Of a stretch of 64,000 bases of DNA, positions 2,927 to 39,903 are shown piece after piece. Both the position numbers and the translations under genes were made by a program. Source of the DNA: Thermoanaerobaculia bacterium (GTDB lineage: Bacteria; Acidobacteriota; Thermoanaerobaculia; UBA5066; Gp7-AA6); assembly GCA_036271035.1 (NCBI GenBank), contig DATBBK010000217.1, positions 3,833-67,832 on the forward strand. The letters are read 5' to 3'. The notes below the pieces were generated by a model. The model ran no database searches. It saw nothing but the letters and a program-made list of their open reading frames with translations, and had not been told where the DNA came from. Position 1 is the first letter of the stretch; each line of letters begins with the position of its first letter.

Positions 2927-3355
2927 CTAGTGGTCCGCGAGGAGGCGTTCGATCCGCTCCTCGAGGACGCGGAGCGGAAACGGCTTGTAGAGATATGCGT
3001 CGGCGCCGACGGTCTTCGCGCGCTCGAGGCGCTCCGCGTGGCCCGAGATCAGGATGACGGGGATGCGCGCGCCCGAGGCCCGCGCCGCGAGAACGAGCTC
3101 CTCGCCGGCGAGGAGAGGCATCAAAACGTCGGAGACCACGAGGTCGATCGAGCCGTCGTGAATGAGCCTCAGAGCCTTTTCGCCGTCCGTCGCCGTCAGC
3201 ACCTCGTAGTGCGCGCCGAGCAGGACCTCCAGCGCCTCGAGAATGGCGAGGTCGTCGTCGACGATCAGGATCCGCCGCTCCCGCAGCGGCCGGTTGTCGG
3301 CGGCACGCGGGCTCCGTGTCCTCGCCGCGCGTGCGCCGTCCTGGTCGGCGTCCAT
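2927..3355 (-). CDS. response regulator receiver (CheY-like, single domain)
   Basis: ILIVDDD...D...SGH...K receiver motifs; ATG at 3355 is 6 nt downstream of the HK stop (3361). Confidence 0.8.
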   Translation of the reverse strand: MDADQDGARAARTRSPRAADNRPLRERRILIVDDDLAILEALEVLLGAHYEVLTATDGEKALRLIHDGSIDLVVSDVLMPLLAGEELVLAARASGARIPVILISGHAERLERAKTVGADAYLYKPFPLRVLEERIERLLADH

Positions 3356-3360
3356 CTCGA

Positions 3361-5337
3361 TCAGTGCTCGACGGACCGCCCGGGAAACTCCATCCCGAGC
3401 GACCGTTCCAGCGCCGCGAGACGGTCGAGGATCTCGCCCGGCGCGACCGGCTTGACGAGGTGCAGGTCGAAGCCCGCCTCTCGGGAGCGGAACCGGTCGA
3501 TCTCCTGGCCCCATCCCGTGAGCGCGATCAGATAGATGTCGCGGCCCCACCGCTCGCTGCGAATCGCGCGCGCCGCGTCGTAGCCGTTCATGCGAGGCAT
3601 GCCGATGTCGAGCAGCACCGCGTGAGGGCGGAACGCCGCCGCCTCCGCGACGGCCGCCGACCCGTCGTGCGCCATCCGGACCTCGTTGCCCGTCATCTCG
3701 AGGAGCATGCCGAGGCTCTTCGCGGAGTCCTCCTTGTCGTCCACGACCAGGACCCGAAGGGCCGTCCGCCGGAGCGCGCGCTGCGCCGCCGCGCGCGGCC
3801 GCTCCTCATCCTGCCGGGTCTGCGCGACGGGAATCCGGATCGTGAACTCGCTGCCGCGCCCGGCGCCCGCGCTGCGCGCCTCGATCGTTCCGCCGTGCAG
3901 ATGCACGAGCCGTCTCGCGAGCGTCAGCCCGATCCCGAGGCCGCTCTGCGCCCGCTCGAAGACCGGGTTCAGCTGGGTGAACATCTCGAAGATCGTCGCG
4001 AGCTTGTCGTCGGGGATCCCGATCCCCGTATCGCGCACGACGATCACCGCGTTATCGCGCTCGCGCGCGGCCGTGAGCAGGATGATCCCGCCCCGCTCGG
4101 TGTACTTCGCCGCGTTGTGAAGGAGGTTCGCGAGGACCTGCGCGAGGCGCTCGCGGTCGGCGTCGACCACGACGCGAGGATCCGCCGTCACCGTCAGGCG
4201 GTGCTCGCACTGCTCCAGGATCGGCCGGCTGGCCTCGACGGCGTCCTTGATGATCTCGCCGATCTCGATGCGCTCCTTGCGCAGCTCGAGGCGATTCATG
4301 GTGATCCGCGAGACGTCGAGCAGATCGTCGACGAGCCGCGTCATGTGCTGCATCTGGCGTTCGATGATCTCGAGCGCCCAGTCGAGCTCGGGCGACGCCG
4401 CGCCTCTCAGGCGCAGGATCTCGGTCGCGTTGCGGATCGGCGAGAGCGGGTTTCTCAGCTCGTGGGCGAGCGTCGCCAGAAACTCGTTCTTCGCGCGGTC
4501 CGCCTCCTTGAGCTCGCGCTCGGCGCGCTTGCGCTCCGTCAGGTCGGCGAAGAGAAGCAGCACGCCGTCGATGGAGCCCGTCGCGCTCCGCAGCGGCGCG
4601 GCGGACATGCTCACGTCCACGCGCTGGCCGCTCTTGGTGAGTCGGTACGTCTCCAGGTTCGGGAACGAGTCCCCGCGCGCGACCAGCGCGCGGTGGCTCG
4701 CGCTCTCGACCCGCTTCTCCTCCGGCACGATCGGAATCGGTTTGCCGACGACTTCGTCCGCGGTCCAGCCGAAGAGTCCCTGGGCGGCGGGGTTCCAGAA
4801 GCGGACGATGGGAGGATCCGGATCGATCACGACGATGGGAACCGGCGACGCCTCGATCAGCAGTTGCCGCGTCTCGACGGACTCGCCCGCCGGGGCGTGG
4901 GACCGGCGCTGCTCCGTGATGTCGACCACGACGTTGAGCGCCCCCAGCACCCGCCCCTGGTCGTCGAAGATCGGATTCACGAAGGCGAGCGCGTCGACCC
5001 GCCGGCCGTCCGGCCGCTCGATCGAGATCGCGTTGCCATTGAAGTCGCGGCCTTCGCGGAGAGCCAGCGCCATCCAGCATTCGGAGTGGGAGACCGGCCG
5101 CCCATCCGCGTCGAACAGCTTGAAGGAGCCGCAGAAGCGATCGTCCGGATGATTCAGCTTCGGCTCGCGGCCCCAGATCGCGGCGGCCCGTGAATTGAAG
5201 TACGTGATCAGGCCATCCGCGTCGCACATGTACGCCGCCGCGGGGAGTCGGCTGAGCGCGGACTCGAGGCGGACGCGGCGCGGCACGCCTCCGACCTCGC
5301 GAGACGCCGCCGCCGACACGAACTGTTCCGAACTCAT
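3361..5337 (-). CDS. hybrid sensor histidine kinase (2x PAS, HisKA, HATPase_c, C-terminal receiver)
   Basis: H-box LATLAHELRNPL, N/G boxes (NLLHNAAKYT, DTGIGI, GLGIGL), C-terminal receiver (VLVVDD...D...K). Confidence 0.85.
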   Translation of the reverse strand: MSSEQFVSAAASREVGGVPRRVRLESALSRLPAAAYMCDADGLITYFNSRAAAIWGREPKLNHPDDRFCGSFKLFDADGRPVSHSECWMALALREGRDFNGNAISIERPDGRRVDALAFVNPIFDDQGRVLGALNVVVDITEQRRSHAPAGESVETRQLLIEASPVPIVVIDPDPPIVRFWNPAAQGLFGWTADEVVGKPIPIVPEEKRVESASHRALVARGDSFPNLETYRLTKSGQRVDVSMSAAPLRSATGSIDGVLLLFADLTERKRAERELKEADRAKNEFLATLAHELRNPLSPIRNATEILRLRGAASPELDWALEIIERQMQHMTRLVDDLLDVSRITMNRLELRKERIEIGEIIKDAVEASRPILEQCEHRLTVTADPRVVVDADRERLAQVLANLLHNAAKYTERGGIILLTAARERDNAVIVVRDTGIGIPDDKLATIFEMFTQLNPVFERAQSGLGIGLTLARRLVHLHGGTIEARSAGAGRGSEFTIRIPVAQTRQDEERPRAAAQRALRRTALRVLVVDDKEDSAKSLGMLLEMTGNEVRMAHDGSAAVAEAAAFRPHAVLLDIGMPRMNGYDAARAIRSERWGRDIYLIALTGWGQEIDRFRSREAGFDLHLVKPVAPGEILDRLAALERSLGMEFPGRSVEH

Positions 5338-5488
5338 CCCAGGCTTTCCTCCCCGAAGGGCGATTGACGAATCAGGTGTTTAGGCCCAAGCAAGAATCGC
5401 GCCCTCGAATCCCCGCGGGCCGTCGTAAATCACTGCAAATACATGAAGAAAGTGACGAAAGAGCGCTGTCCGTCGGGTGAACACCTGA

Positions 5489-7114
5489 GTGGCTATGGGT
5501 CAAGCCGCCGGGCGACCGAATTGGCGCGGAAGAACCCTCCCCCGGCTACGGGGATTCCCCGACACGGGCGACCGTCCCTTCCGCGCCTCGGCGGGACGCG
5601 CGGAAGGACGGCCAGTCCGGATTCGTCCTCGTCATCCCGGTGCGCGTCTTGCTACGTCGACCGGCGTGGGCATTCTCCAGGGACTCATCGCATGGCTTCG
5701 CAAGTCCGCGGGCAAGATCGTTCAGGCGATCTTCGGGTGGGCGGTCCGCGCGCTGTTCGGCACTCCCGAGGAGAGCGAGAAGCCGATGCTCTCGGCCGTC
5801 GTCGCCGGCGCCGCCGCGTGGCCGCTGCTCTTGATCGGGATCCCCTTCCCGAAGATCGCGGCGTTCGTCATCGCCTTCGTTCCCATCCCGAAATGGGTGG
5901 CCTCTGGGTGGATCCGCGCGATCTGGATCGTCCTGGCGGCTGCCGTTCCCGTCGCGGTCGGCATCGCGCTCGCGAGCCGCGGCGCCGAGAGGCAGCGACG
6001 CGGTGCCTGGAGCACCGCGCTCCACGGCTTTCCGGTTACGGCCGCGCTCTCGATGGCGTTCCTGACGGCGTTTCTCACGTCCCCGATCCGCCGCATCGTC
6101 GCGGCCGCGAAACGGCGGGAGGACGTCACGATTCCGTTGCTCCTCGGACGCGATCAGTACGCCGCCGCCGCTGAGACGATCCGCTCGACGCTCGAGGAGC
6201 ACGAGCTCCCGGCGCGGCGCGCGAAGCCGCCCTGGCTCTTGACCGCCCCCTCGCGCGTGCTGCGCGCGCTCGGCGGATCGATGCTGCGCGACCGCATCCC
6301 GCGCGAACTGTGCTTCTATCGCGGCGAGTCGATCGACGTCGTCGTGAACCCGAACGGGGTCACGCTGCAGGCGGAGAAGGAGACCGCGGCGCGCGCGCAC
6401 GCGCTGATCTGCGAGATGGCGACGCTCGGGCCGGGTCTCCAGACGGTGGACTCGGACGCGCAGCGCATCGAGCGAAGCCTGAAGGACGTCTGCCAGGTCT
6501 TCATGCGCGACCCGGCCAGTCACACGGGCTCGGCGGTCCTGCTCGAGCGTCTCGATGAGATCGGACAGGAGCTCGAGCACACGCATCTTCCGTACGACGA
6601 TTGGCAGGTGCTGTATCGCGAGATTCTCCAGATGGCTCGCGCCATCCGGGGACGTCCCCAGATTCTCGGAACCGAAAGGAGAGACCCAATGGAGGAGGAA
6701 CGGAAGCCTCGCGAGGCATGGCCGCCGCGGCCGGCGCGGGGCATCACGTCGATGTCGACGCCTCAGCTCGTCGCGGGACTGACGACGCAGATGCGAGAGC
6801 TCGCGCGCAAGGAAGTCGAGCTCGCGAAGGCCGAGCTCCGTGTCGACCTGAAGGCGGAGGCGAAGTCGGTGACCTGGTTCGCGGCGGCCGCGATCACGGG
6901 TCTGTGCTTCGTCAACATGCTCTTCGTGGCCGCCGCGCTTTTGGTCGCGCGCTGGCTCGATCCGCCGATCGCGGCGCTGGCGGTCGCCGGGCTGCTGCTC
7001 GTGCTGGGGGTGATCTTCGGACTGGCCGGGAAGGCGTCGCTGGTCAAGCCGATGGAGACGACGCGCAGAACACTGAACGAGAGCTGGTCATGGGCAAAGA
7101 ACCGAATCGCGTGA
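5489..7114 (+). CDS. membrane protein: N-terminal TM region + ~230-aa unknown cytoplasmic domain + C-terminal YqjE/holin-X (Phage_holin_3_6, DUF1469)-like module; start uncertain (GTG 5666 or ATG 5786 are alternatives)
   Basis: single uninterrupted frame; last ~110 aa (TTQMRELARKEVELAKAELRVDLKAEAKS + 2 TM helices) match the holin-X/YqjE family pattern; N-terminus has 3-4 predicted TM helices. Confidence 0.5.
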   Translation: MAMGQAAGRPNWRGRTLPRLRGFPDTGDRPFRASAGRAEGRPVRIRPRHPGARLATSTGVGILQGLIAWLRKSAGKIVQAIFGWAVRALFGTPEESEKPMLSAVVAGAAAWPLLLIGIPFPKIAAFVIAFVPIPKWVASGWIRAIWIVLAAAVPVAVGIALASRGAERQRRGAWSTALHGFPVTAALSMAFLTAFLTSPIRRIVAAAKRREDVTIPLLLGRDQYAAAAETIRSTLEEHELPARRAKPPWLLTAPSRVLRALGGSMLRDRIPRELCFYRGESIDVVVNPNGVTLQAEKETAARAHALICEMATLGPGLQTVDSDAQRIERSLKDVCQVFMRDPASHTGSAVLLERLDEIGQELEHTHLPYDDWQVLYREILQMARAIRGRPQILGTERRDPMEEERKPREAWPPRPARGITSMSTPQLVAGLTTQMRELARKEVELAKAELRVDLKAEAKSVTWFAAAAITGLCFVNMLFVAAALLVARWLDPPIAALAVAGLLLVLGVIFGLAGKASLVKPMETTRRTLNESWSWAKNRIA

Positions 7115-7665
7115 GCTACGCGGCGGCGGAGCCGCGCGACTTGAGGGATGACGTCGCGCGCGCCTCGCGAGACGACGCGGAGCGCGCATTTCGCGAGAGC
7201 CTCGACCGATCCTCGCGGAGGGACCCGGAGCACTCTCGGCGAGACCAGCGCGCGTCGAAAGACGACGACCGGAAAGCCGACTCGCCTCGAGACCTGAAGC
7301 GCCTCGAGTGGGAGATCAAACGCACGCGCCGCCGTCTCGACGAGTACGTGAGCGAGATCGACCGCAGGCGCCACCGGCTCCTCGCCGTGCGCGAGCATCC
7401 GTGGGCGGCGGCCGGCGCGGCGCTCGGCGCGGTCGGTCTCGCGGTCGGGATCGTCGTCCTCGTGCGGCGCCGGGCCGCGACGCGCCGGCGAGTGCGGACC
7501 CGATCGACGAGCCTGCGCGAGGCGTTCGGCCGCATGCTCGATCATCCGGAGCGGATCGCGTCCGAGGGGAAGAGTCCGTGGTCGCGGGTCCTGGTCGCGG
7601 TCGCACCGATCGTCGTCAAGAAGGTGGCGGACGCAGCGCTCCGGCGGCGCCGCACCCGCGCCTAG
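7090..7665 (+). CDS. DUF3618 / YqjD-ElaB-like membrane-anchored protein (charged coiled-coil N-terminus + single C-terminal TM)
   Basis: ATG at 7090 overlaps the end of the upstream gene by 25 nt; LEWEIKRTRRRLDEYVSEIDRRR followed by HPWAAAGAALGAVGLAVGIVVLVRRR; typical partner of holin-X/YqjE genes. Confidence 0.55.
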   Translation: MGKEPNRVSYAAAEPRDLRDDVARASRDDAERAFRESLDRSSRRDPEHSRRDQRASKDDDRKADSPRDLKRLEWEIKRTRRRLDEYVSEIDRRRHRLLAVREHPWAAAGAALGAVGLAVGIVVLVRRRAATRRRVRTRSTSLREAFGRMLDHPERIASEGKSPWSRVLVAVAPIVVKKVADAALRRRRTRA

Positions 7666-7695
7666 ACGCCGGACGCCCGAGCTCGATGCCTGAGG

Positions 7696-8406
7696 TCAGC
7701 CTCGAGGCTTCCGCGCCGCCTTGCGACGCGGCGCGGCGACCCGCCGGATCGCGGGTCCCTCGCCGCCCGCCCAGGTGAGCTCGTACGAGTCCGCCTTGCG
7801 CACGTTGCCGACGACCGCCGGACGGAAGCACGCGATGTTCGTGCCGGCGCGCCGGCGCACGCTCGGATAGACGACGCCGAGCGAGCCCGCGTCGAGCAGC
7901 TGACCCGCGAGCCGCTGCGACGCGACGTAGCTGTCGGGCTCGAGGCAGTCCGCGTGGGAGCGGTCGCCGCGGAGGTCGTGGAGGTCCGCGCTGACGTCGG
8001 AGAGGTAGTCGTCGTAGACGATCGTCTCGTCGAGCCACCCCGTCTCTACGAGCTCGATCGACTTGTGGAACGCGACCTCCGCCTGCGCGGTCTCCGCCTC
8101 GAAGGCCGCGTACCAGGCGCCCCGGTCGGGCCCGTTGAAGCGGCCGCCGACCGGGCTCGCATGACAGAAAGACGCGTTGACGATCCGGAAGTACGGGACG
8201 CCGAAGACGAGCTCGTGCGGCCGGACCCCCGGGAGAAGGTTGTTCTCGGCGAGGATGCGGTCGTTCGTCGCCGCGTCGATCTCGAAGATGTCCTGCAGGT
8301 GCGCGTCGTCGTCCGCGATGCGCGCGAGCACGGTCTCGCCGTGGCGCGCCGGAACGAGGCGGTGCGTGTCGTAACGCCGAACGAGGCGGACCGGGGGAAG
8401 GCTCAC
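7696..8406 (-). CDS. RES-domain toxin (RES-Xre TA system, MbcT/ParT-like)
   Basis: RES-domain motifs (R...Y...E...S: RFNGPDRGAWYAAFEAETAQAEV...SQRL...GVVYPS); GTG start overlaps the antitoxin stop (GTGA). Confidence 0.8.
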   Translation of the reverse strand: MSLPPVRLVRRYDTHRLVPARHGETVLARIADDDAHLQDIFEIDAATNDRILAENNLLPGVRPHELVFGVPYFRIVNASFCHASPVGGRFNGPDRGAWYAAFEAETAQAEVAFHKSIELVETGWLDETIVYDDYLSDVSADLHDLRGDRSHADCLEPDSYVASQRLAGQLLDAGSLGVVYPSVRRRAGTNIACFRPAVVGNVRKADSYELTWAGGEGPAIRRVAAPRRKAARKPRG

Positions 8407-8849
8407 AGCCCGCCGCGGCGCGAGTCGAGGAGACGCCGGACCGTCTGGAGCGCCGGGATTCCTCCCCTGCGGACGTACTCGAGCGGAGGCTCGCCTCCGA
8501 AGATGGAGTTGGAGTTCGGCCGGCGCATCCACGCGTCGGCGAGCGCCGTCGAGTAGAGGATGTTGAGCGCCTTGAAGATGCCGACGAGATACGAGACGCG
8601 AAGCAGCTCGTCGGCGTTCAGGAGCTTCTTCTCGCGCCGCTTGATGGCGTGGAGCGTGCCGTTCGAGACGCCGCCGAGCAGCTCGCGCGCGTCCTCGTCC
8701 TTGACGTCCCAGCGATCCATGACGTTCAGGAACGCGCGCAGCGCCGAGGGGCTCAGGCGCTCGCGTGTCGCGCGGCTGCCGAGGTCGACGAGCGGCTCGG
8801 GGCCGTAGCGGGTCCGGGGCTCGACGGGGCGCTTCGGCGTCGCATCCAT
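8403..8849 (-). CDS. Xre-like antitoxin with DUF2384 (MbcA/ParS-type) domain
   Basis: DUF2384-like C-terminus (LLGGVSNGTLHAIKRRE...ADAWMRRPN...GGEPPLEY); immediately upstream of and overlapping the RES toxin. Confidence 0.8.
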   Translation of the reverse strand: MDATPKRPVEPRTRYGPEPLVDLGSRATRERLSPSALRAFLNVMDRWDVKDEDARELLGGVSNGTLHAIKRREKKLLNADELLRVSYLVGIFKALNILYSTALADAWMRRPNSNSIFGGEPPLEYVRRGGIPALQTVRRLLDSRRGGL

Positions 8850-39829: not shown

Positions 39830-39903
39830 GGGTCCATAGCTCAGCGGTCCAGAGCCACCGGCTCATAACCGGTCAGACCCCGGTTCGAATCCGGGTGGAC
39901 CCA
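39830..39903 (+). tRNA. tRNA-Met (anticodon CAT; elongator-type), CCA not encoded
   Basis: acceptor GGGTCCA/TGGACCC, anticodon stem ACCGG with loop CTCATAA, T-arm CCCGG-TTCGAAT-CCGGG; followed by a terminator. Confidence 0.85.

Follow-up and report, generated by a model that had tools for sequence, protein, structure and literature searches.

Holin-X proteins of Actinobacteria are stand-alone products of about 130 amino acids, and YqjE of Escherichia coli, which belongs to the same Pfam family, PF07332 (Phage_holin_3_6/YqjE, DUF1469), is a protein of 134 residues with the family domain at positions 19-127. Genes of the yqjE and yqjK type keep synteny with DUF883/yqjD genes across the DUF883 family, whose member YqjD is anchored in the membrane and tethers and inactivates ribosomes, as described for E. 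coli YqjD/ElaB (bioRxiv 10.1101/2024.08.16.608256). In Pseudomonas, the homologues PA3040-3042 are part of the response to envelope stress (PMC11302039). Here we analysed a stretch of 64,000 nt with a G+C content of about 70%, hereafter the window, from a Thermoanaerobaculia bacterium (assembly GCA_036271035.1, contig DATBBK010000217.1, positions 3,833-67,832 of the forward strand). In this window a PF07332 module forms the C-terminal part of a much longer protein, encoded by gene 1, and the 3' end of gene 1 is overlapped by a smaller gene, gene 2. This cassette is a conserved chromosomal two-gene membrane unit of uncultured bacteria from several phyla. Judging from the sequence signals described below, gene 1 probably yields two proteins, the long fusion and a free YqjE-like protein of 141 residues.

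Extent and conservation of the gene 1 fusion

The original prediction had placed a holin-X module at the C-terminus of a 541-residue open reading frame (ORF), with no stop between this module and the upstream part. The ORF is present in the window (5489..7114, forward strand). In a frame plot of the G+C content at third codon positions (GC3), the gene 1 frame alone gives a high signal; it begins at about 5660, reaches 7114 and dips at 6530-6740, which indicates one continuous coding frame. The first 59 codons (5489-5665) are open in this frame and yet lack the coding GC3 signal: the 5' end of the 541-residue ORF is a high-GC open-frame artefact. A protein of 482 residues deposited at NCBI from a Thermoanaerobaculia metagenome-assembled genome (MAG; protein P0001) is 100% identical to gene 1 and begins at GTG 5666. 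Likewise, the start codon aligned to position 1 of the family profile in 81 related loci corresponds in the window to GTG 5666. The real start of gene 1 is thus almost certainly this GTG, giving 482 residues, and the implied start at 5489 has to be given up, as it is supported neither by GC3 nor by the N-termini of the relatives. The part upstream of the holin-X module, first put at about 430 residues, is accordingly smaller and consists of about 340 residues followed by a disordered linker of about 30 residues.

The assignment of the C-terminus to the holin-X/YqjE family is firm. PF07332 matches residues 426-537 of the 541-residue ORF with 77.4 bits against a cut-off of 28.4 (E=1.1e-21), and model positions 2-116 of 116 are covered in the long ORF as well as in the short product proposed below. 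The family is also matched by all 74 fused relatives that were compared. The module starts with a charged amphipathic helix, continues with a two-helix transmembrane hairpin and ends in a basic C-terminal tail; AlphaFold places its helices at residues 365-427, 433-458 and 462-481. Averaged over the family, it contains 3.7 lysine and arginine residues before the hairpin, 0.4 in the loop and 8.2 after the hairpin. These basic flanks and the neutral loop place the two ends of the module in the cytoplasm, and hence also the linker and the soluble domain that precede it.

In order to follow the fusion among relatives, a separate hidden Markov model (HMM) was built for the N-terminal part (N) and for the holin-X part (H), and the loci were scanned with both. 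With one genome taken per species, the scan gave 80 loci, every one of which belongs to an uncultured MAG. The MAGs represent Acidobacteriota (Thermoanaerobaculia, Holophagales, Terriglobales), Myxococcota, Methylomirabilota/Rokubacteria, Binatia, Gemmatimonadota and a few others. Both parts are present in 67 ORFs, and N only in 20 ORFs. N and H lie in one frame without a stop in 66 of the 67 loci, joined by linkers of 22-55 residues, and the fused relatives, found in at least five phyla, extend to identities as low as 35-40%. When residues 1-341 were used alone as the query, 195 proteins were found. Among the 120 that were listed, most measure 460-550 residues, include PF07332 and are 88% to 40% identical, while a minority of 336-400 residues lack PF07332. 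The only exception to the single frame is a Polyangia MAG (locus L061), in which N and H are separate genes. The N-H fusion is under selection. As predicted, a membrane and cytoplasmic protein is indeed joined to a complete YqjE/holin-X module, and such a fusion is unusual. When the homologues are inspected for a stop or a frameshift between two genes, the fusion is kept.

The window contains one copy of each module and no second copy of either. Weak matches of the H model to the N-terminal membrane region had raised the possibility of an internal duplication of the hairpin; profile comparison gave E=0.09 (hhalign), and these matches were treated as compositional. Several MAGs contain two family members (L018 and L060 on contig CAWFVU010000006.1, L006 and L085, L063 and L078), either a fused and a stand-alone copy or two stand-alone copies; one pair lies about 7 kb apart on opposite strands. 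In one database protein (P0044), N, H and gene 2 are found in a single ORF, probably through a frameshifted assembly. Typical fused genes with 37-39% identity also occur in a genome binned as the archaeon Candidatus Nitrosocosmicus (L049) and in one binned as Bacteroidota (L019), which probably reflects binning errors and not the real distribution.

Internal start and 5' start of gene 1

The linker between N and H is poorly structured in the AlphaFold model (predicted local distance difference test, pLDDT, below 50 for residues 337-357). In the window it reads ...GAACCGAAAGGAGAGACCCAATGGAG..., in which the Shine-Dalgarno sequence AAAGGAGAG is followed after 5 nt by an in-frame ATG. Initiation at this ATG would produce a protein matching PF07332 with 82.1 bits over its residues 26-137, a size and layout that match those of E. 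coli YqjE. The protein alignment shows a methionine in the otherwise unconserved linker of nearly all relatives. At the nucleotide level, 53 of 64 distinct fused genes carry an in-frame ATG or GTG in the linker behind a Shine-Dalgarno sequence with a duplex energy of -7 kcal/mol or lower. The typical signal is AAGGAGG, 5-8 nt and ATG; the spacing to the start codon is 5-9 nt, and the median distance from the start to the H module is 26 residues.

Three controls were made. Windows of the same length within the N-domain coding sequence of the same genes contain such a signal in 14% of cases (binomial P about 1e-34). Shuffling of codons within each linker, which preserves its Glu/Lys/Gly-rich composition and its number of methionines, predicts 15.9 genes against the 53 observed (z=11.8). 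The tails of stand-alone N genes carry the signal in 0 of 18 cases. On this evidence from the sequences, the internal Shine-Dalgarno and start are a selected feature. The exceptional locus L061 has the same signal at a gene boundary: at 2520-2560 of this locus, the N gene ends in a TAA stop that has GGAGG on one side and, on the other, the GTG start (2554) of the separate H gene, and the partner gene follows H at 3084. The split could be a real fission or a MAG indel; the internal Shine-Dalgarno signal of L061 demonstrably occupies the position of a gene start.

The 5' start of the long form is of another kind. A Shine-Dalgarno sequence of -7 kcal/mol or lower precedes this start in only 3.7% of 81 loci, the median energy being -2.1 and the value in the window +0.4. 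Instead, a TANNNT hexamer begins at -15, -13 or -12 from the start codon in 27 of 78 distinct upstream regions, and other TANNNT hexamers in the same regions are rare, with only three from -60 to -17 and two at -9. The acidobacterial subgroup that includes the window has cTTGCTAC/CT at the same place. The presence of TANNNT about 12 nt upstream of the start is a criterion for leaderless genes in high-GC bacteria (PMC3160421), and positions -15 to -12 are where a -10 box would be expected if transcription started at the start codon itself, as for a leaderless-type mRNA. For part of the family, these patterns make a leaderless long form well supported; for the window, the -10-like element suggests the same. 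Two products are proposed because a Shine-Dalgarno sequence and a start are conserved in the linker while the long start has no Shine-Dalgarno.

A scan of positions 5200-7900 for sigma-70 promoters and terminators gave nothing informative. Eight loci of the Myxococcota group (L025, L032, L037, L043, L044, L056, L062 and L067) share a promoter-like pair within 45 nt of the start codon: GCTGCCGAA (or GCTGACGAA), a spacing of 16-17 nt, and CCTAG[CG]TT ending 7-9 nt before the start codon. The -35 part of this pair is unlike that of sigma-70.

N-terminal family, partner gene and genomic context

The N-terminal membrane region begins with an amphipathic helix bearing the invariant motif FGWAV..F (invariant columns of alignment A1). 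AlphaFold places helices at residues 2-31, 39-57, 62-70, 80-105 and 114-148, and the family-averaged hydropathy has cores at 47-72, 85-99 and 125-141. The domain that follows is predicted with good confidence: the pLDDT is 81.6 for the whole gene 1 protein and 92.7 for residues 146-337 modelled alone, with a predicted template modelling score (pTM) of 0.86. Its modelled fold is a beta-alpha-beta-alpha-beta3-alpha unit followed by a helical bundle. A set of polar residues is conserved in this domain (H245, E250, Q259, T260, Q266, E269, H286, W313, Q314, Y317, R318, Q322 and R325), and the sequence conservation suggests that they form a defined site.

The N module matched nothing described in the collections that were searched. 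No Pfam family covers it in any of the 74 members, and searches against NCBIfam, PADLOC and PHROGs gave no match. Foldseek searches of the Protein Data Bank (PDB) yielded nothing usable with the full model (best E=0.13), and a best E of 0.048 with template modelling (TM) scores below 0.4 for the cytoplasmic domain; against viral structures, the best hit of this domain had E=0.009 and a TM score of 0.33. A sequence profile search of the PDB returned only a coiled-coil-like match to mitofusin (E=0.0025), which is not meaningful.

Conversely, the module has many relatives of its own. With a profile of the stand-alone N members, 1.84 billion representatives were searched and 983 clusters at 50% identity were found, of which 295 had E<=1e-30. 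When 237 family members with a complete C-terminal end were sampled, 137 had N and H, 59 had N only and 41 had another tail, in many cases one transmembrane helix or a basic amphipathic helix. In the protein P0200, the N domain is joined directly to a gene 2-like tail (transmembrane helix, RHPEDVA, amphipathic helix). We considered whether the stand-alone N genes are split forms with a holin-X gene nearby, and found no H or gene 2-like ORF within 3 kb in the 20 loci; these genes are true paralogues without the module. The N module, of about 340 residues, thus appears to be a distinct and undescribed family that also occurs alone.

Gene 2 starts at ATG 7090, and its overlap with gene 1, originally predicted as 25 nt, is exact and also conserved. 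A small ORF of the gene 2 type lies directly 3' of H in about 52 of the 67 fused loci. Among 53 distinct loci, 46 have exactly 25 nt from the gene 2 ATG to the end of the gene 1 stop, and five more have an ATGA-type overlap of 4 nt. The codons for the conserved ..TLKED.. end of H supply the Shine-Dalgarno sequence ahead of gene 2 (median -10 kcal/mol). To judge from this fixed geometry, gene 2 is probably translationally coupled to gene 1. Its protein has a charged coiled-coil N-terminus, an invariant ELDRRRH motif, a transmembrane helix with HPW and a glycine zipper (residues 99-123, nt 7384-7458) and a run of RRR (alignments A2 and A5). About 65 residues follow the helix, with a conserved HPERVAS motif and a second amphipathic or hydrophobic helix. 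The coiled coil proposed in the original prediction is therefore present, while the C-terminal membrane anchor is not, as these 65 residues come after the helix. In the window and in few relatives (A5), gene 2 contains at residues ~11-60 (7120-7270) a charged low-complexity insert of about 45 residues, rich in R, D, E and S.

The proposed membership of gene 2 in the DUF3618/YqjD-like group found weak support at best. DUF883_C matches the window protein over residues 99-123 with 24.2 bits, below the cut-off of 27 (E=2.6e-5), with HPW, glycines and RRR visible, and matches only 6 of 29 relatives, again below the cut-off. The N-terminal DUF883 domain (PF05957) has no match at E<=10 in gene 2 or its relatives, against 49.5 bits for E. 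coli YqjD. DUF3618 (PF12277) has no match at E<=10 in the window protein and reaches 16-17 bits in 11 of 29 relatives (best E=8e-4), all under the cut-off of 24.9. YqjK (PF13997) reaches 15-18 bits in 14 of 29 relatives, under its cut-off of 28.1. Comparison of the gene 2 profile with E. coli YqjD by hhalign gave E=0.005 and a probability of 7%. Homology with YqjK was also considered: the DRRRH/DRRW motif aligns, and the E values were 0.08 against E. coli YqjK and 0.2 against the YqjK family alignment, so that this candidate was rejected. By analogy of architecture, gene 2 resembles the partners of YqjE (YqjD, YqjK, DUF3618), and it fits none of those families.

The coordinates of the cassette and of its surroundings are collected in Table 1. 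A gene for a DUF1801 protein is also among the flanking genes. The neighbours vary among the other loci, and the hybrid kinase is not kept beside the cassette. No endolysin, spanin or other phage gene is found near the cassette, its proteins have no match in PHROGs or PADLOC, and no match was found in 50,697 phage records and 72,556 plasmids; a prophage or defence origin was rejected on the strength of these searches. The cassette region contains no Rfam match and no repeats.

Table 1. Positions of the cassette, its parts and other annotated features in the window
Feature	Position	Strand	Remarks
Stand-alone receiver protein	2927-3337	-	follows the hybrid histidine kinase
PAS-HisKA-HATPase-receiver hybrid histidine kinase	3361-5337	-	divergent from gene 1; 328-nt intergenic region
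Extended -10-like element TGcTACGTC	5650..5658	+	ends 7 nt before GTG 5666; candidate leaderless or near-leaderless promoter
Gene 1, long product	5666..7114	+	482 aa + stop; order: membrane region, cytoplasmic domain, linker, YqjE/holin-X module
N-terminal membrane region	5666..6100	+	residues 1-145; conserved amphipathic helix, then 3-4 hydrophobic helices
Cytoplasmic alpha/beta + helical-bundle domain	6101..6670	+	residues 146-335, ~190 aa; undescribed family
Disordered linker	6671..6757	+	residues 336-364; length and sequence variable among relatives
Internal Shine-Dalgarno AAAGGAGAG	6675..6683	+	duplex with anti-Shine-Dalgarno -7.1 kcal/mol
Predicted short product	6689..7114	+	141 aa + stop; free YqjE/holin-X protein from internal ATG 6689 (Met342)
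PF07332 (Phage_holin_3_6/YqjE) module	6764..7099	+	Pfam match, residues 367-478 of P0001
Overlap of gene 1 and gene 2	7090..7114	+	25 nt; translational-coupling geometry
Gene 2	7090..7665	+	191 aa + stop; ORF and translation
RES-domain toxin	7696-8406	-	102 bits; convergent with the cassette
Xre/MbcA-type antitoxin (Xre-like-HTH + Xre_MbcA_ParS_C)	8403-8849	-	overlaps the RES toxin gene
tRNA gene	23993-24064	-	one of two tRNA genes, the sole Rfam matches in the window
tRNA gene	39830-39903	+	as above

Proposed working, rival readings and closest known systems

We propose that the 5' start without Shine-Dalgarno, probably leaderless, gives a 482-residue inner-membrane fusion, and that the Shine-Dalgarno and ATG of the linker give the free 141-residue YqjE-like protein. 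The bitopic gene 2 protein would be made together with the short H protein by coupling, and by analogy with yqjD-yqjE-yqjK, a module of stress or stationary phase, the two may form a basic membrane assembly. The long form would join this assembly through its identical H module, and its N membrane and cytoplasmic domain would then serve as a regulator or scaffold; the ratio of long to short form would be set by leaderless versus Shine-Dalgarno-led initiation. The state of the ribosome pool affects these two modes of initiation differently, so that the ratio could sense translational stress. We put the probability of the two-gene, two-product architecture as a whole at about 0.6. The physiological role of the cassette, for which analogy with known systems is our guide, is held with a confidence much below this figure. 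The complete proposal, in which an ORF found in at least five phyla has two outputs, a leaderless regulator-fused form of YqjE and a coupled free form whose ratio reports and feeds back on translational stress, is tentative, and we would give it somewhat less than an even chance.

Several observations weigh against the two-product architecture or limit its reach. Both starts of gene 1 are deduced from sequence patterns only. The -10-like element, clearer in relatives, is weak in the window, reading TACGTC without the final T and with TG upstream, and the long start is a GTG; the internal Shine-Dalgarno of the window is itself only moderate (-7.1). A clear internal Shine-Dalgarno and start are missing in 11 of 64 fused genes, and local RNA folding at the internal start did not differ from shuffled sequences (z=0.71). 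The loci are phylogenetically related, so that the P values overstate their independence, although the contrast is still large. The loops on either side of the last hydrophobic helix in residues 1-145 are both basic, and hydropathy and charge do not settle the topology of this region. Structure and profile searches gave no functional clue for the cytoplasmic domain. Finally, gene 2 lies below every curated family threshold, so that only its architecture speaks for the analogy with YqjD and ribosome binding.

If the fusion were the only product, the internal signal would be a relic of an ancestral boundary between N and H genes, a translational pause, or a by-product of an E/K/G-rich linker. 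The split form in L061 makes a two-gene ancestor plausible, the linkers are rich in Glu, Lys and Gly codons that resemble Shine-Dalgarno sequences, some fused genes do without the signal as just noted, and the short protein is a prediction from sequence. Yet the linker is otherwise free to vary, and the Shine-Dalgarno and a start at 5-9 nt persist at 35-40% identity across phyla; moreover, the codon shuffle that keeps composition accounts for less than a third of the observed genes and the stand-alone paralogues lack the signal altogether. We regard a fusion-only gene as rather unlikely. That the fusion is an artefact, in which a lost stop, a frameshift or a MAG assembly error has joined two genes, might be suspected from the metagenome-assembled contig, from the two genes of L061 and from the obviously frameshifted triple fusion P0044. 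It is as good as ruled out by the 67 independent loci from many samples and phyla, 66 of which keep one frame without a stop, by the 137 fused proteins among 237 complete family members in protein collections, and by the continuity of GC3 in one frame of the window.

The cassette could also be a phage-type holin/antiholin device for lysis or cell death, in which the short form is the pore-forming holin and the long form its inhibitor. The Pfam name ('holin superfamily III') points that way, and a long and a short two-helix protein made from two in-frame starts follow the logic of lambda S107/S105 (textbook). To our knowledge, no PF07332 member has demonstrated holin activity. The N-terminal extension of gene 1 amounts to 340 residues, not to a few, the family is chromosomal with variable neighbours, and the searches for lysis genes, PHROGs, phage records and plasmids reported above found nothing. 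Overproduction of E. coli YqjE does slow growth (PMC4738310), whereas YqjE is treated as a membrane protein with no assigned function (bioRxiv 10.1101/2024.08.16.608256, PMC11302039). A holin device thus seems improbable to us, and we retain the two-product architecture.

The H family is already known, and the architecture of the partner gene is also of a familiar kind. Three things appear undescribed: the family of the N domain, the conserved fusion of this domain to PF07332, and the combination, across phyla, of a leaderless-type start with an internal Shine-Dalgarno start. In the few papers found to name these Pfam families, there is no report of such fusions. PF07332 is widespread, syntenic with the ribosome-hibernation factor YqjD and toxic when overproduced, and its function is unexplained. 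Its 'phage holin' name is probably misleading, and this is also a problem of annotation, as the whole 482-residue protein is named 'phage holin family protein' at NCBI. The cassette gives this family a natural covalent partner, the membrane and cytoplasmic family of about 340 residues. The conserved pair of starts implies that long and short forms coexist, and the fixed overlap with a YqjD/YqjK-like partner offers a third handle. Gene 1 is also a candidate for a cross-phylum gene combining leaderless and Shine-Dalgarno-led initiation in one frame. If the proposal is true, it would be an unusual layer of control on a widespread and unexplained stress-membrane system, and it would provide the first mechanistic handle on the YqjE/'holin-X' family, with a new domain family as its regulator.

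Among known systems, the cassette was originally likened to the enterobacterial yqjD-yqjE module with a new N-terminal extension. The H family and the extension stand; the assignment of gene 2 to YqjD, being below threshold, is weak. In favour of the likeness, E. coli YqjE and the window short product belong to the same Pfam family (75.8 and 82.1 bits against PF07332), a partner gene overlaps the 3' end of the YqjE-type gene in both (11 nt for yqjK/yqjE, 25 nt for gene 2/gene 1), and the transmembrane helix of gene 2 shares the P-W, glycine-zipper and RR features of YqjD. In contrast, BLASTP detects no similarity between E. coli YqjE and the window H module, gene 2 has no N-terminal DUF883 domain and carries a tail of 65 residues after its helix, the partner is downstream only, and E. 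coli has no counterpart to the 340-residue N module, the in-frame fusion or the internal start. The actinobacterial pairs of 'Holin-X' and DUF3618 genes are comparable in that a PF07332 module stands beside a gene with weak matches to the DUF3618 coil in 11 of 29 relatives; they differ in that the window gene 2 has no DUF3618 match and that its relatives all score below 24.9 bits.

Dual-start phage holins (lambda S105/S107, phage 21 S68/S71) have one frame, two starts and a shared transmembrane-hairpin part, as proposed for gene 1. Their starts, however, are 2-3 codons apart behind one leader, while those of gene 1 are 341 codons apart, and the long form of gene 1, known here from sequence, adds a whole membrane and cytoplasmic domain in a non-phage context. 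In CheA-L/CheA-S, ClpB and IF2 alpha/beta, initiation at an internal Shine-Dalgarno and start gives a C-terminal proteoform, which assembles together with the protein of full length. The predicted internal Shine-Dalgarno and start inside the gene 1 ORF are of this type. Unlike these proteoforms, the short form of gene 1 would be an entire domain of an independent family, its two starts seem to use different modes of initiation, and the arrangement is conserved across phyla instead of being drawn from one model organism.

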